Positions 22,997 through 28,205 of a stretch of 28,305 bases of DNA are shown here, piece by piece; position 1 is the first letter of the stretch; each line of letters begins with the position of its first letter. Both the position numbers and the translations under genes were made by a program. Below the pieces are notes generated by a model. That model did no database searches, was not told the origin of the DNA, and saw nothing but the letters and a program-made list of their open reading frames with translations. This DNA is from an uncultured Pseudomonadota bacterium (lineage in GTDB: Bacteria > UBA10199 > JACPAL01): NCBI GenBank assembly GCA_964471095.1, contig CAYYFU010000001.1:8138-36442 (forward strand). Reading direction: 5' to 3'.

Positions 22997-24232
22997 ATGA
23001 TCCCAAAGGCTCGAGTGGTGGCCACCCTCGCGAGGGAGGTCATGGGGGTGGTTCGCCGCAGTCCATCGCTAGCCGAGAAATTGGACTCGTTTTGCCTGGT
23101 TGGCGGACCTAAGGCAGGCGGGCTAACTGACCCTCGATGTTTTATGGTTCGACTGGGGTGGACCGGCCTTCCAAAACCCCCTCACGTGGGAACGGTTCTC
23201 CGGGCAATCCGGGCGAGAAAGGGGCTGACACTCCTTCAAATCGAACAGATCAGCGGCATCTCGCAAACGGTCCTCTCGCGCATCGAAAAGGGGAAGGTCC
23301 GTCCAACAGAGGAATCGGTCCTAAAGATCACGCAGGCGCTTTTTAACGACGGTCAAATCGCCCCCGGGGATCTTAAGGCCGTTTACACCCATTTGAATCC
23401 GGAGGTCCGCTCCCTCCGCTATTTCACCGAGACCGGCACTGCCGGCACCTTTTGGATCGATCTTCCGCCCGGCATCACCCTCGACGACATCATCCACCTT
23501 CATGTCAGCCTGTTCATCGAGCGGGCGATCGTCCGCAGGGGGCTCAAACGCCGTGATGTGGCCCGCCAACTCGGAATGCGATCTGAAACCTTCGAATCGC
23601 TGTTGAAGAGAGATCTCGGTCCGGTCCCCCTGGAGACCATCCAAAAACTCGCGGCAATCACCAAATTGCCGGAGAGCTTCCTGTATTTCGGCTACCACCG
23701 CGAGATGCGGTTTTTTCTTGAGATCGCAATCCGGGGGGCACGCGGTGGGACTTTGAGTCATCCCACACCGGCCGCTTTTCAGACCAAAGAGGTCCTCCGC
23801 CGCTTTCGCTCCCATTGCCGAACGCAGGGGGAAAGTGACTATCTGGAGCTGATCGAATCGGCTTCCCCGAGCGAACGGGACGCCGCTTTTTATTACCTCG
23901 ATCGGGGACACAACACCAACCTAAACCGAGTCTTTTACACCCTGAAGGTGCCGGCCCCCTTCTCCAGCATCGAGGAGATCCGGGCGATCGATCTTCGAGC
24001 CCGCCTCATCGAACGAAAGGGTCGCGAAAGTATGGACGCCTTTATGAAAAGGCACGGATTGGGTCGAAAGGTCTTCGAATCTACCTTTCCGCTGGGGGCG
24101 GCCGAACATGTCCTGCCGCGGATCCCAAAATTAAAGAGTCTGGCAAGGGCGGCCGACCTGCCGGAACCGGTTGCACTTCTCTGGTTCTGGCCGCATCTGG
24201 CCAAGAAGGTTGAGGTCCTGTTCCGCTGCTAG
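22997..24232 (+). CDS. Multi-XRE-HTH domain protein (two clear and one degenerate HTH)
   Basis: VGTVLRAIRARKGLTLLQIEQISGISQTVLSRIEKG; RRGLKRRDVARQLGM; RESMDAFMKRHGLG...KLKSLARAADLP; linker GTFWIDLPPG shared with neighbours. Confidence 0.8.
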   Translation: MIPKARVVATLAREVMGVVRRSPSLAEKLDSFCLVGGPKAGGLTDPRCFMVRLGWTGLPKPPHVGTVLRAIRARKGLTLLQIEQISGISQTVLSRIEKGKVRPTEESVLKITQALFNDGQIAPGDLKAVYTHLNPEVRSLRYFTETGTAGTFWIDLPPGITLDDIIHLHVSLFIERAIVRRGLKRRDVARQLGMRSETFESLLKRDLGPVPLETIQKLAAITKLPESFLYFGYHREMRFFLEIAIRGARGGTLSHPTPAAFQTKEVLRRFRSHCRTQGESDYLELIESASPSERDAAFYYLDRGHNTNLNRVFYTLKVPAPFSSIEEIRAIDLRARLIERKGRESMDAFMKRHGLGRKVFESTFPLGAAEHVLPRIPKLKSLARAADLPEPVALLWFWPHLAKKVEVLFRC

Positions 24233-24246
24233 GCCAAACTTTTCCC

Positions 24247-24273
24247 GCAACCTTGTCGGACAACTCACGATAA
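24247..24273 (+). promoter_or_regulatory. Sigma28-like promoter copy 5
   Basis: GCAACCTT-N11-CACGATAA-N10-ATG(24284); lies within AAACTTTTCCCGCAACCTT (24236-24254), identical to 25342-25360. Confidence 0.65.
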
Positions 24274-24283
24274 CCGGCTTGTC

Positions 24284-25379: not shown

Positions 25380-25389
25380 CGTCCCCGCA

Positions 25390-27009
25390 ATGACACTGCT
25401 CGCCAAAGCTGGTCTACGCCTGATTCGAGAGCTCCCGAAGGTGGGCGAACTGATGAGGGCCGTTGTTCAAGGGGCTCACGCTCATCCGCCTCTTGCTTCG
25501 CTGGAGGAGTTCCAACGGATCGCTGGTTTTCTTCCCCCTCTTGATCCCCGCCTCTTTGCTGCCCGAGGAAGATCAGTCACTGCAGCCGAAGGGATGGCAA
25601 ACCTGCTTTGGGATCTTATCGCGAACCCTACCTCAAAGGAGAAGCTGCGCCTGTTAGCACTCCGTCGCGCGGCGCCCCACTTGCGAGAGAATGACGAGGT
25701 CTTGTCTGCCGTTGCCCGACTCGCCGATCACGACCCGTCTCCGACCGTTCGCAGACAGGCGATCGAGACGCTTCAGGCGGCGCGAGAGGGGAGGCTCGTA
25801 AAAAAGGCCGAACGGAGGAGCGAGACCCATGAGAGAATTCTTGATCTCCTGAAGGATCAGCCGGAAGGGGAAGGAATCTCCTTGGATGGGACCGAATTGG
25901 TGGTTGATGAGGGGGCCTTCGTGTCGTTCGTCCAAGGAAGGACTGATCAGAACTGCTCTCGGAGGCTCTATGCCAAGTGGATGCATGGGGCCATTGGTCC
26001 GGAGGAGGTTGCCGGTGGCTCGTTTCGATCGCAACTGGAGTCGCTCTCCCTCGCCACCGGGCTCGATCTGAACCCACCGCTGGTCCTGATCATTCCAAAA
26101 CTGAATCCACGGGCAATCCCGGCAATGGAAAGGGCGACCGCCGATTTTGTGAGGACCAGTCGCCGCCCCCCTCAACAAATCGTCCTGCTCTATCAGGAAA
26201 CTGGGACCGAGGCCTCGGTCTGGAACAGACGCTTTCTGGAACCAGCTACCGCATTGCCACCGCCCCCCGCTGCACCGGCAATGCCGCCACCAACTGTGCC
26301 AACGCGGACAAGGCGACCGGCCCTGCCCACGCGCACCCGGCCGGTCGTTGCGCGCCAATTCCAACCGATTAATCTCACGGAAACCAGAAAATTTGCCGCC
26401 TCCCTTGTTCAAAAGAAATCTCTCACCCCCTCACAGGCCGAGGCGGGGGTGGGGCAAATCGTGAGGAAACTCCAAGCTGCAGCCAGCTCCCACCAGCAAA
26501 TGACGGCACTTTACGAACAGCTCGGTATTAATCGCTACCTGGCCTACCAGATCGCGACAGAGGTAAAGTTCCTCCCCCTTGAGAAGATCGAGGCGCTGGC
26601 CGCGGCAGTCGGACTGACCGAGGCCCAACTCTATCTCCTTTCGCGCGCCCGACTGATGAGTGGGCTTTTCCGAGGGGTTGACTACCGGTCCGGGGTCGTC
26701 TGGGTGACCCCTCCACCGAAGGCCTCCGCCAAAACGCCGCTCCGCAAGGCGGTACAGGAGGCAATTCGTGAAGAAGTAAAAAAAAGAGGGGGAAACATGC
26801 TCCAGGCGTCGAGGGAACTCGGTTTCCCTCGGAAGACACTCTCCGATTTCTATGCGTCGGCGGCCAACATCTCGCGAAACATGTGGGAAGACAGGGTTCG
26901 GCAACCGATTCAACGGCTTGAGGAACGAATGAAGATCCCCGGCTCGATCAGCGCCGCCTGTCTCGCCGATGAGTTTAAGCGGTTCGGCGTCCGGGTGAGG
27001 TTTATTTAA
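25390..27009 (+). CDS. HEAT-like repeat + Pro-rich linker + degenerate XRE-HTH protein
   Basis: VARLADHDPSPTVRRQAIETL (HEAT-like); LPPPPAAPAMPPPTVPTRTRRPALPTRTRP; LYEQLGINR...LEKIEALAAAVGL; GVVWVTPPP; GGNMLQASRELGFPRKTLSDF. Start moved from 25276 to 25390. Confidence 0.75.
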   Translation: MTLLAKAGLRLIRELPKVGELMRAVVQGAHAHPPLASLEEFQRIAGFLPPLDPRLFAARGRSVTAAEGMANLLWDLIANPTSKEKLRLLALRRAAPHLRENDEVLSAVARLADHDPSPTVRRQAIETLQAAREGRLVKKAERRSETHERILDLLKDQPEGEGISLDGTELVVDEGAFVSFVQGRTDQNCSRRLYAKWMHGAIGPEEVAGGSFRSQLESLSLATGLDLNPPLVLIIPKLNPRAIPAMERATADFVRTSRRPPQQIVLLYQETGTEASVWNRRFLEPATALPPPPAAPAMPPPTVPTRTRRPALPTRTRPVVARQFQPINLTETRKFAASLVQKKSLTPSQAEAGVGQIVRKLQAAASSHQQMTALYEQLGINRYLAYQIATEVKFLPLEKIEALAAAVGLTEAQLYLLSRARLMSGLFRGVDYRSGVVWVTPPPKASAKTPLRKAVQEAIREEVKKRGGNMLQASRELGFPRKTLSDFYASAANISRNMWEDRVRQPIQRLEERMKIPGSISAACLADEFKRFGVRVRFI

Positions 27010-27011
27010 CA

Positions 27012-28205
27012 ATGGGATTCCCAGTCAAATTCGGTCTCAGGGTGGCCCGCGGGGTGGCGGGGCGGCTGGTGGCAGAGGCGGCCCCTCTGGCGGCGGGCCG
27101 ATCCGGGGCCGTCCGGGACTATTTTACACTCTGGACCGATCCCCGCGTCTGGATGGCGGCCCGCCGCGCCAAGAACCCGTTCGACTGGGCCCGGGTGCTG
27201 ATTCGGGATGCCCTCCTCAATCCCACTGCTGAGATTCATCTCCGCTTTGCCGCCATCGAAAAACTGTTCCCGCACCGCGCCGCCTGCCCGGAGATTGCCA
27301 CCGCCCTCGCCCGGGCGGCAAATCAGGGCCCGGGATCCCCCCTTCAGCAGGCGGCCCGACTCGCCTTGGGGGAACCCCTCACCGGCAAATTCGAGAGGCT
27401 GAGTTCCTCGTTTCGTAACCATATTGAACCGCTGGCCAGAAAGTTGGGGAATCCAGGAAGGTTCGCGGAAACAGTTCGGCTTGAGACGGCCCGATCGGCG
27501 GAGGCCTGGCTCGGCCACGAACCGGTGAGACGTGCCTTTGAGGCGGCCGCCCGGGACGATCCCCACACCACCGTCAAAACATTCGCCCAACAGGCGCTGG
27601 CCCGATATCAAGGACCGAACAGAATGCTGGGGGGTCAGGCGAGCGATGCCAGTGAACTGACAGCGAGGCTGGGGCAGGTGTTCGATGGAAAGGGGCCGTT
27701 GCGGGTGACCTCTCAAACCACCCTCCGAACTTCCCATGGGCAGGTGACCCGATCCAACCTCCAGGGCAGACCGAACGTCTTCGGGCGGGTGGTGAGCGGA
27801 ACCCTCGACCCTGAATATATTGATAAGGGTCACTTGAGGGGGGATCTGGCGGCGCTCGCGGAGGCATCCCGTAGGGATCCAAAAGCCTGCTATTTCCTGC
27901 TCGCCCCGACCGCCACGGAGGGTGCACTCAGGGCCGCTAGGACATTTTTCAGGGGATCAAACGGCGCTGCGGCTCCAGCCCGGCTGGTTCTGCTGGGGCG
28001 GCTGCGGGGCTCCGGTGAAGATTGGTTGCGGATTGTCGCGACACCCGGCCGCGAACCGACCCTTCACAGACTCACCTTTCGCCAGGTTCGCCGTCAGGGA
28101 GGGGTGGGAGGCCCGCCGGGGGGAGGACAACCTCTCAGGAGTGTTATCCATCCATCGGTTCGAGAAGGCCCGCTTCGTCCCTACGGGCCAAGGACAAGGC
28201 AATGA
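27012..28205 (+). CDS. HEAT-like repeat protein sharing an N-terminal module with the upstream gene
   Basis: DALLNPTAEIHLRFAAIEKLFPH; FEAAARDDPHTTVKTFAQQAL; starts 2 nt after the previous stop. Confidence 0.7.
   Translation: MGFPVKFGLRVARGVAGRLVAEAAPLAAGRSGAVRDYFTLWTDPRVWMAARRAKNPFDWARVLIRDALLNPTAEIHLRFAAIEKLFPHRAACPEIATALARAANQGPGSPLQQAARLALGEPLTGKFERLSSSFRNHIEPLARKLGNPGRFAETVRLETARSAEAWLGHEPVRRAFEAAARDDPHTTVKTFAQQALARYQGPNRMLGGQASDASELTARLGQVFDGKGPLRVTSQTTLRTSHGQVTRSNLQGRPNVFGRVVSGTLDPEYIDKGHLRGDLAALAEASRRDPKACYFLLAPTATEGALRAARTFFRGSNGAAAPARLVLLGRLRGSGEDWLRIVATPGREPTLHRLTFRQVRRQGGVGGPPGGGQPLRSVIHPSVREGPLRPYGPRTRQ

Follow-up and report, generated by a model that had tools for sequence, protein, structure and literature searches.

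The DNA analysed here (the window, 28,305 nucleotides in all) is a chromosomal segment from an uncultured groundwater bacterium, and carries yceD, panD, ilvC, gltX, a PAP2 gene and cdsA. Towards its right end is an array of four co-directional open reading frames (ORFs), designated g1 to g4 and spanning 22997–28205, which is the subject of this work. The four genes had been predicted, from the letters of the DNA and their translations, to be paralogues built from a pair of XRE-type helix-turn-helix (HTH) domains and a HEAT-like module. All four are present as predicted, and all eight of the peptide motifs quoted for them, including three NP motifs and the N-termini KAGLRLIR and KFGLRVAR, lie at the expected places. 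Comparison of the products indicates that the array consists of two sets of modules that meet in g3: a twin-HTH set in g1, g2 and (weakly) g3, and a HEAT-like plus alpha/beta set in g3 and g4. It is well supported by the comparisons described below that g1 and g2 belong to a rare, unnamed and fast-evolving family, defined by a unit of about 340 residues with three HTHs (the tri-HTH unit).

All four genes are on the plus strand and encode strongly basic proteins (isoelectric points, pI, of 10–11.5). g1 (22997–24232; 411 aa, pI 10.1) is composed of a 58-residue N-terminus and one complete tri-HTH unit. The unit contains a first, plain XRE-type HTH (HTH_A, aa 64–117, nt 23186–23347), a strand and LPPG motif (aa 150–159, nt 23444–23473) containing GTFWIDLPP from residue 150, a clasped HTH (HTH_B, aa 170–246, nt 23504–23734), and a second clasped HTH (aa 311–411, nt 23927–24229), which is a half-copy in the C-terminus running from VFYTLKVPAP through an HTH to KVEVLFR. 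g2 (24284–25339; 351 aa, pI 10.4) begins with about 105 residues that include two moderately hydrophobic segments, followed by a helical stretch (aa 126–137) bearing LVKNPPPEKRLR and by a partial unit, namely HTH_A (aa 155–210), GIFWVKLPPG (aa 241–250) and a clasped HTH_B (aa 259–338).

g3 (25390–27009; 539 aa, pI 10.3) was taken to start at ATG 25390, on the basis of the public gene call and the promoter geometry; the ORF list begins at TTG 25276. Its HEAT-like N-domain (aa 1–140) is followed by an alpha/beta domain, called X here (aa ~162–282), a Pro-rich linker (aa 283–323), a diverged clasped HTH with the motif LYLLSRAR (aa 353–421), GVVWVTPPP (aa 435–443) and a last clasped HTH (aa 450–539). 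g4 (27012–28205; 397 aa, pI 11.5) has a HEAT-like N-domain (aa 1–129), then more helices, an X domain (aa 258–356) and a basic Gly/Pro-rich tail. It contains no HTH, and its ATG lies 2 nt past the stop codon of g3. Nucleotide composition along the array is unremarkable.

Relationships within the array were measured by local alignment calibrated on shuffled sequences. g1 60–250 and g2 150–351 are clearly homologous (Smith-Waterman z = 20 against shuffles, Gumbel P 3e-12; blastp 8e-13), and the 41 nt coding for G-x-FW-x-x-LPPG-x-TL are 83% identical between the two genes at the DNA level. The N-terminal parts of g3 (1–135) and g4 (1–130) match with z = 11.8 (Gumbel P 1.5e-7), which bears out the predicted sharing of N-termini by these two proteins, and g3 135–300 matches g4 255–397 with z = 6.3 (Gumbel P 1.7e-4). 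The C-terminus of g3 aligns with the module of g1 or g2 at z 3.4–4.2 (Gumbel P 2–7e-3), and g4 has no detectable similarity to g1 or g2. The description of all four genes as paralogues is right for g1/g2 and for g3/g4, but not for the array as a whole, which is two sets bridged by g3. The NP-x5-LR segment, which had been thought to be common to g2, g3 and g4, is shared by g3 and g4 but not significantly by g2: comparison of g2 with the g3 N-terminus gives z = 1.7 (Gumbel P 0.06), and against a profile of g3 and g4 the g2 segment falls at the matching position without significance (hmmsearch E 0.7; hhalign P 0.063).

Curated libraries recognise only the HTH domains of these proteins. In Pfam, g1 is above the cutoff for HTH_31 (45.9 bits, cutoff 27), HTH_3 (39.3, cutoff 23) and HTH_26 (36.8, cutoff 22), with matches at aa 64–115 and 178–221, and g2 is above it for HTH_31 (34.2 bits, cutoff 27). 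No Pfam HTH model is above threshold for g3, for which HTH_8 reaches E 0.11 only, and g4 has no Pfam match. The only matches in NCBIfam, PADLOC and PHROGs are generic ones of 50 residues to the HTHs of g1 and g2; g3 and g4 have none. The NCBIfam matches to HipB and MqsA are far under cutoff and confined to the HTH; the PHROG matches are to generic HTH regulators; and in PADLOC the first HTH of g1 matches the generic models HTH_VI, RmrA and CapH, while g2 to g4 match none. Judged by these four libraries, no array gene maps to a well-known full-length family.

A profile was made from the aligned twin-HTH modules of g1, g2 and g3 together with the half-copy from the g1 C-terminus, and was searched exhaustively against 1.84 billion protein cluster representatives (50% clustering); the size of the family given here comes from this one search. 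It found 117 proteins at E ≤ 0.001, most of which are ordinary tandem-XRE-HTH proteins matching the first HTH only. About 11 outside proteins match across the linker too, and these are P0006 (1082 aa), P0007 (913 aa), P0009 (497 aa), P0012 (638 aa), P0060 (1005 aa), P0020, P0025, P0026, P0033, P0038 and P0084. It was this search that first brought the family to light: when g1, g3 and g4 were used in word-indexed homology searches, the proteins of the window were recovered together with a single partial relative of g4 (P0004, 46% identical to g4 over aa 259–391) and nothing else. Pattern scans found no relatives in IMG/VR and no match in the GTDB species genomes (patterns from g4/P0004 and from the P0009-group alignment) or the JGI metagenomes, each being a weak negative made with two short degenerate patterns per scan; the ten-unit alignment described next is too divergent to yield scan patterns.

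In local phmmer comparisons g1 aa 60–406 aligns end-to-end with P0012 (5e-24), twice with P0006, and also with P0007 and P0025. An alignment of ten units, from g1 and nine outside units, is collinear across about 340 columns. A hidden Markov model (HMM) built from the nine outside units alone recovers g1 with E 1.2e-43 over positions 4–339 of 345, and g2 with E 1.2e-25 over positions 8–198 (Z = 1e6), and does not match g4. By this coverage g1 is a single whole unit, and g2 corresponds to the first two thirds of a unit.

The order of elements in the unit is a plain HTH_A, a helical linker with FYxxWNxE, a β-strand ending in LPxG, and HTH_B; then a helix with SFLYLLxHxEIPxF, a closing β-strand, a variable spacer, and a second strand-LP(S), HTH and closing strand. 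The strands that precede the clasped HTHs end in LP(P/S)G. Conserved linkers (FYxxWNxE and SFLYLLxHxE) join the HTHs, and the scaffold segments are more conserved than the recognition helices (mean BLOSUM pair score 1.9–2.4 against 0.8–1.0).

AlphaFold2 was used to predict the structure of g1 aa 60–250 (191 residues). The model (predicted local distance difference test, pLDDT, 77.5; predicted template modelling score 0.64) contains two five-helix HTH bundles and exactly two β-strands, at aa 151–155 and 242–246. With only two strands present in the DSSP assignment of the model, they must pair with each other, and would therefore bracket HTH_B. Foldseek aligns stretches of 50–80 residues of the model to C.BclI, DdrO, SinR and P22 C2 with root-mean-square deviations of 1–3 Å, at whole-query E-values of only 0.02–0.1. 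Foldseek against PDB and BFVD, together with a profile search of the PDB, matched single XRE domains (C.BclI, HipB, SinR, ClgR, DdrO, Stl and phage CI-type repressors), and nothing in either database spans the whole unit.

The HTHs themselves are of a known kind. By sequence and predicted fold the domains of g1 and g2 are five-helix HTHs of the XRE/Cro-CI superfamily (HTH_3, HTH_31, HTH_26; C.BclI, SinR, ClgR, HipB, DdrO, Stl). However, known members usually have one HTH with an oligomerisation or sensor domain, whereas the array proteins chain two or three HTHs, and in the unit two of these are clasped by β-strands, with conserved linkers for which there is no model. Neither the clasped multi-HTH unit and its family, nor the modules and the promoter motif that go with it, are described in Pfam, NCBIfam, PADLOC, PHROGs or the PDB, and a search of the literature on tandem-XRE proteins found no account of a multi-HTH unit.

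One alternative is that the four genes are unrelated, ordinary XRE repressors of single function, and that the shared motifs are due to chance or low complexity. The lack of significance for the g2 NP-x5-LR segment, the weak match of the g3 HTHs and the restriction of library matches to HTH domains would all suit this. However, it is refuted for g1/g2 and for g3/g4 by the alignment z-scores given above (20; 11.8 and 6.3), and by the outside-unit HMM, whose matches to g1 (1e-43) and g2 (1e-25) take in the linkers and not just the HTHs. Four organisms moreover keep the architecture, synteny and promoter (described below). We therefore consider this alternative highly improbable. The original prediction was that these do not look like ordinary XRE repressors, and the conserved multi-HTH unit and the failure of any gene to fall in a separate well-known family agree with it. 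It had proposed alignment of all against all, with HMM building, and structure modelling as checks. The first is significant for g1/g2 and g3/g4, and the outside HMM recovers g1 and g2, but the g2 NP motif and the g3 HTH remain weak; the second gave two HTH bundles with single-XRE matches for g1, but a model of low quality for g4 (below).

The HTH-linker-HTH arrangement had been assigned to g3 as well as to g1 and g2. It is firm for the latter two but weak for g3, in which the first HTH aligns with the second (clasped) HTH of the unit. The outside-unit profile places g3 aa 373–447 on HTH_B and the LYLL helix and not on HTH_A (E 1.4e-3 at Z = 4; hhalign P 4.9e-4), and at database scale g3 does not reach membership of the outside-unit HMM. 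g3 aa 368–439 matches P0007 aa 484–555 (blastp 3e-8). These matches weakly suggest that the g3 C-terminus is two clasped HTHs with the spacer between them collapsed.

The N-terminal alignment of g3 and g4 has 38 invariant columns, including PH....E...A.AR.A, and by sequence the domain is plausibly HEAT-like. The HEAT label itself is sub-threshold (HEAT_2 in g3, 18.3 bits, Pfam cutoff 27.7). When the aligned N-termini of the two proteins (NPT motif to about aa 135) were used as a profile, the PDB yielded a single protein, the HEAT-repeat protein FlaL1 of the Treponema denticola flagellar sheath (9PIN/10PL, two weak hits with E 0.005–0.007), which contains a similar 'INPTSSLALEVL...LAP...PVRNRALEVL' repeat. 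At about 16 bits per domain this match supports the class of fold and not functional homology. In combining an XRE HTH with an alpha-helical repeat domain, the array also resembles the RRNPP regulators (PlcR, Rgg, NprR, ComR), but its repeats are N-terminal and HEAT-like, not TPR, there are several HTHs, and no peptide or transporter genes accompany them. No sequence match of RRNPP regulators to the array proteins was found in Pfam or NCBIfam.

No known relative was found for the alpha/beta domain shared by the middle of g3 and the C-terminal part of g4. An AlphaFold2 model of g4, built with g3 and P0004 as the alignment, has a pLDDT of 45.6 overall and is unusable, although the HEAT-like region is helical in it (pLDDT 58–67 there). 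Its Foldseek matches, to the acetyl-CoA carboxylase central domain and to RsbV/RsbS STAS proteins, all have E > 0.02 and are untrustworthy, and the idea that g4 is a STAS-like anti-sigma antagonist is accordingly unsupported. From its sequence g4 is best described as an HTH-less paralogue of the front half of g3. An XRE protein beside an HTH-less paralogue, in tightly coupled genes, recalls SinR/SinI and SinR/SlrR of Bacillus. There is no sequence relationship to that system, however; g3 and g4 share HEAT-like and alpha/beta domains and not the SinR helical hook, and an interaction between them is only predicted.

Each of g1, g2 and g3 had been predicted to have its own copy of a promoter motif, and this is the case. 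The window contains seven copies of the pattern GCAACY-N15-CGA where 0.49 would be expected, and none of 100 shuffles exceeded three. The g1 copy, at 22960–22986 (+), is GCAACTTT-N11-GCCGACGA and ends 10 nt before ATG 22997. g2 and g3 have a longer cassette, AAACTTTTCCC followed by an octamer pair, which is GCAACCTT-N11-CACGATAA for g2 (24236–24273 (+), octamers from 24247) and GCAACCTT-N11-GCCGAGAC for g3 (25342–25379 (+), octamers from 25353); these end 10 nt before ATG 24284 and ATG 25390 respectively. The 19-nt exact repeat AAACTTTTCCCGCAACCTT ahead of g2 and g3 (0.01 expected) is part of this wider pattern. TTTTCCSRMAACC is the upstream part of the g2/g3 cassette, and it is the octamer pair that is informative. 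g4 has no such site; its ATG being 2 nt after the g3 stop, we infer translational coupling to g3.

The other four sites are elsewhere in the window. The best copy, GCAACCGG-N11-GCCGATAA at 19008–19034 (-), lies 10 nt from the ATG of the gene at 17219–18997 (-), which is a putative member of the same regulon and encodes a 592-aa protein with a HEFGH zinc-protease-like motif and C-terminal hydrophobic/transmembrane helices. GCAACCTT-N11-GCCGACAA occurs twice. At 2975–3001 (+) it is 26 nt from the ATG of a gene for a 235-aa membrane protein (3028–3735 (+)), which overlaps a putative gene, a 269-aa ORF (3654–4463) with a short collagen-like G-x-y run. At 11979–12005 (-) it falls inside the longest ORF, 11105–12040 (-), of a lipoprotein-like gene. 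This position implies that the gene probably begins at ATG 11932, downstream of the promoter, where the product reads MSRLAL... with a lipobox-like LIGC, and where GGAGG precedes the ATG. The seventh site, GCAACCTT-N11-GTCGAAAA at 930–956 (+), has no convincing ORF downstream. The nearest is of 78 aa, starting with GTG (976–1212), in a gene-poor stretch (546–1407, about 860 bp) with no Rfam match, and the site may belong to an unannotated small gene or small RNA of the same regulon. The promoter-bearing genes at 3028, 11105 and 17219 were tested and are unrelated to the HTH family.

The octamers are spaced by N11 in all seven sites, which is the spacing of the E. coli sigma-28 consensus, TAAAGTTT-n11-GCCGATAA (PMC2859248). 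The -10 octamers (GCCGATAA, GCCGACAA twice, GCCGACGA, GCCGAGAC, CACGATAA and GTCGAAAA) resemble the consensus, while the -35 octamer, (G/A)CAAC(C/T)TT, agrees with it at four of eight positions (3, 4, 7 and 8) and has neither the full TAAAGTTT nor TAAA. We therefore describe the motif as having sigma-28-like geometry, and do not assign it as a FliA promoter. The promoter of gltX contrasts with it, being sigma-70-like (TTGAAT-N17-TAGATT). GCCGATAA spans -15 to -8 in the structure of a sigma-28 open complex (PMC12784957), and with a 10-nt gap to the ATG the predicted +1 is therefore three nucleotides before the ATG. The predicted +1 base is a purine in all six of the ten-nt cases. The mRNAs of these genes are predicted to be near-leaderless, in agreement with the lack of any Shine-Dalgarno sequence ahead of g2 and g3.

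Upstream of g1 is also a perfect 6+6 palindrome, TTTCCGAAACCGGAAA (22932–22947; TTTCCG-AAAC-CGGAAA), in the AT-rich divergent intergenic region and 12 nt upstream of the g1 -35 octamer. It was flagged as a minus-strand stem-loop, where no gene ends, and is a candidate operator by its form and position. On the other side of this spacer (187 bp) is a divergent gene for a giant protein of 1256 aa (19039–22809 (-)), with six DUF5122 beta-propeller repeats and six Calx-beta domains.

The array is the last part of a variable island between cdsA and icd, of which the right border is the 3' end of icd (isocitrate/isopropylmalate dehydrogenase family, 28227–28305 (-)). The same border is found in L001, a syntenic metagenomic (Logan) contig of 17.5 kb from another organism, which has the order yceD-panD-ilvC-gltX-PAP2-cdsA-[561-aa gene]-[P0012]-icd(-)-[P0006]. 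The family thus sits in the same cdsA-icd island in both organisms, and diverges much faster than its neighbours: GltX, PanD and CdsA are 76%, 74% and 66% identical between the window and L001, and the g1 and P0012 units about 23%. The giant Calx-beta gene and the gene at 17219–18997 are also within the island, which is much smaller in L001. Four groundwater metagenome runs contain the DNA, with a depth of only about 3x and in fragmentary, near-identical contigs that offer no usable strain variation; the locus was found in no RNA run.

A Gly-rich, partly hydrophobic N-terminal domain of about 230 aa is common to the three family-associated proteins of L001. In the 561-aa protein (5324–7009 (+)) it is joined to an unrelated C-terminal region of about 330 aa with no Pfam hit, in P0012 to HEAT-like helices and one unit, and in P0006 to HEAT-like helices and two units; the unrelated C-terminus of the first shows the N-terminal domain to be a shared module with swapped partners. 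It is also present in P0007, and its beginning is joined in P0004 to the C-terminal domain of g4. It has no Pfam match, and is absent from every ORF in the window. In the contig carrying P0007 (L003, from an NCBI assembly), that gene is preceded, across a spacer of 53 nt, by the last third of a second family gene (E 2.5e-12), and the contig therefore contains another tandem array. A soil subgroup (P0009, P0020, P0025 and P0026), two members of which come from a tropical-soil co-assembly, consists of HEAT-like helices and one unit, among unrelated signalling genes. The suggestion that the family is diversifying through duplication and the exchange of modules is supported: in these relatives tri-HTH units are recombined with HEAT-like helices, with the N-terminal domain and with the domain at the C-terminus of g4.

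The promoter is also found with the relatives. It precedes the L001 561-aa gene (ACAACTAT-N11-TCCGATAA, 10 nt to the ATG), P0006 (ACAACTTA-N11-ACCGATGT, 11 nt), P0007 in L003 (GCAACTAA-N11-GACGATGA, 10 nt) and P0060 in L002, a contig of 40% GC (ACAACCTT-N11-GCCGATAG, 39 nt), and these are the only matches to the motif on the three contigs. In L004, a soil contig of the P0009 subgroup, no such promoter precedes the gene, and the two pattern matches lie within genes and look fortuitous. In sum, conservation of architecture, synteny and promoter extends over four organisms, with a GC content of 40–59% in the three that were measured.

These arrangements raise the possibility that the proteins are secreted or injected effectors of a host- or prey-associated bacterium (nucleomodulin-like or anti-prey), in which a variable DNA-binding cargo is exported to the DNA of a target cell and the 230-residue domain of the relatives acts as the module for export or membrane insertion. 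The sharing of one N-terminal domain by three L001 genes with different C-termini points this way, as do the fusion of its beginning to the g4 C-terminal domain in P0004, the very fast divergence relative to housekeeping neighbours, and the envelope proteins in the putative regulon (the lipoprotein, the HExxH protein with C-terminal transmembrane helices, and the transmembrane protein). Sigma-28-type control of late genes in Chlamydia also points this way. So does that of attack genes in Bdellovibrio (PMC3627812). However, g1 to g4 lack both a signal peptide and the N-terminal domain, the window contains no secretion-system genes, and the carrier role is a guess for a domain that has no known homologue in Pfam. 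In addition, proteins with HEAT and unit but without the N-terminal domain occur in bulk soil contigs beside ordinary signalling genes. The family is like polymorphic toxins and effectors in fusing one N-terminal domain to varied C-termini, in its fast divergence and in its variable copy number, and unlike them in that g1 to g4 do not have the domain, the cargo binds DNA and is not enzymatic, and there are no immunity genes or secretion markers. On balance an effector role is unlikely, but it is the main rival to the reading favoured below. A more specific version is that the tri-HTH units serve as cargo in a previously unrecognised class of polymorphic DNA-binding effectors, exported by an uncultured host- or prey-associated lineage and expressed as near-leaderless transcripts by an attack- or late-stage sigma factor derived from sigma-28, with the N-domain of the relatives as export module and the array as carrier-less or differently delivered variants. 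We regard this version as distinctly unlikely.

Antitoxins and defence regulators often contain XRE HTHs, and the array could in principle be an anti-phage defence or toxin-antitoxin-type module, with its HTH proteins as sensors or antitoxin-like regulators. The PADLOC matches of g1 and the combination of fast evolution with paralogy, which suits conflict systems, are in its favour. However, the PADLOC matches cover only a 50-residue HTH in one of the four proteins, and the array has no nuclease, NTPase, toxin or other effector partner. Its proteins are of 351–539 aa and are not small antitoxins adjoining a toxin gene, their neighbours are housekeeping genes and the giant Calx-beta protein, and no relatives turned up in the IMG/VR pattern scans. 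The sole defence-like gene (Fic, SoFic-like) lies on the far side of gltX, at a distance of 10 kb. The scans of IMG/VR and the purely generic PHROG matches likewise give no sign that the proteins are phage-borne repressors. Of the functions first suggested for the products (nucleoid condensation, a defence sensor array, DNA-binding effectors), defence thus has no specific support, and we consider it very unlikely.

The reading that we favour, tentatively, is that the array products are stage-regulated, multivalent DNA-binding proteins that regulate or organise the cell's own DNA. g1, g2 and g3 would each be transcribed from their own alternative-sigma promoter of sigma-28 geometry (GCAACCTT-N11-GCCGATAA-like), with transcription starting about 3 nt before the ATG to give a near-leaderless mRNA, and g4 would be translated through coupling to g3. 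The basic products would bind DNA by two or three HTHs per chain in a fixed geometry, such that one chain could read a composite site or bridge separate sites; this multivalent binding is inferred from HTH homology, basic pI and the fixed scaffold. Variable recognition helices on the conserved scaffold may let the paralogues differ in specificity. g4 would be a modulator of g3, pairing with it by way of the HEAT-like and alpha/beta modules that the two have in common, much as SinI acts on SinR; the evidence for this is the similarity of the N-terminal and middle domains (z = 11.8 and 6.3) and the 2-nt gap. The proteins would then act on the cell's DNA during the programme run by that sigma factor. 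In Chlamydia, sigma-28 drives late genes such as the histone-like hctB. A further precedent for a non-flagellar sigma-28 (FliA/WhiG-class) regulon is the attack phase of Bdellovibrio (PMC3627812). The sites in the window are like such stage regulons in the GCCGATAA-like -10, the spacing and the mixture of lineage-specific genes, as in Bdellovibrio, and unlike them in the -35 and in abutting the ATG; no flagellar gene was seen in the window.

Several observations weigh against this regulatory reading. No sigma-factor gene is present in the window, and with only four of eight -35 positions in agreement the cognate sigma factor could belong to another group 3 or group 4 family. The HTHs of g3 match the unit weakly, and since the g4 model is unusable the partnership of g3 with g4 is argued from homology and gene spacing only. 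The palindrome before g1 occurs once only. The divergence is extreme (units about 23% identical, against 76% for GltX), the number of copies is not constant, and in relatives the units are joined to a common N-terminal 'carrier' domain, which is found with unrelated C-termini too. Fast divergence, variable copy number and carrier-domain fusions are more typical of effectors and conflict systems than of housekeeping regulators or nucleoid proteins.

Some other features of the window were also observed. A cluster resembling those for ribosomally synthesized and post-translationally modified peptides is at 4516–8618 (+). It starts with a gene for a 170-aa product (4516–5028) with the double-glycine-leader-like LSEEEMGNLWGG, followed by a fusion of apolipoprotein N-acyltransferase (LNT_N and CN_hydrolase) to a C39 peptidase (5038–7062), which is an unusual combination, and ends with a B12-binding radical SAM enzyme (7059–8618). 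The Fic-domain gene (12078–13109; PADLOC SoFic, E 3e-45) is divergent from the lipoprotein-like gene, and the short spacer between them has a direct repeat, CGTCTAAATAT / CGTCTAATAT. The longest ORF for a beta-CASP/RMMBL ribonuclease (13126–14814 (-)) overlaps gltX (14554–15933 (+)) by about 260 nt, and its true start is probably further downstream. YceD (DUF177), divergent from panD, has a C-terminal extension to about 365 aa in both organisms (1407–2510 (-) in the window, 69–1160 (-) in L001), for which the L001 relative gives a weak match to an outer membrane protein beta-barrel.

A multi-HTH family with a predicted function does not by itself settle a long-standing question. If the regulatory reading holds, it would represent a new way to build DNA-binding proteins from the commonest bacterial HTH, in which two or three XRE domains are clasped by β-strands in one unit of about 340 aa that can be duplicated (up to six HTHs per chain) and recombined. 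Engineering of multivalent DNA recognition might make use of such a scaffold, in which the recognition helices vary. The family is restricted to a few uncultured bacteria of soil and groundwater, and evolves several-fold faster than the housekeeping genes that adjoin it. The alternative-sigma promoter abutting the start codon would serve as a marker for the regulon, and offers a testable case of programmed leaderless expression in an uncultivated lineage.

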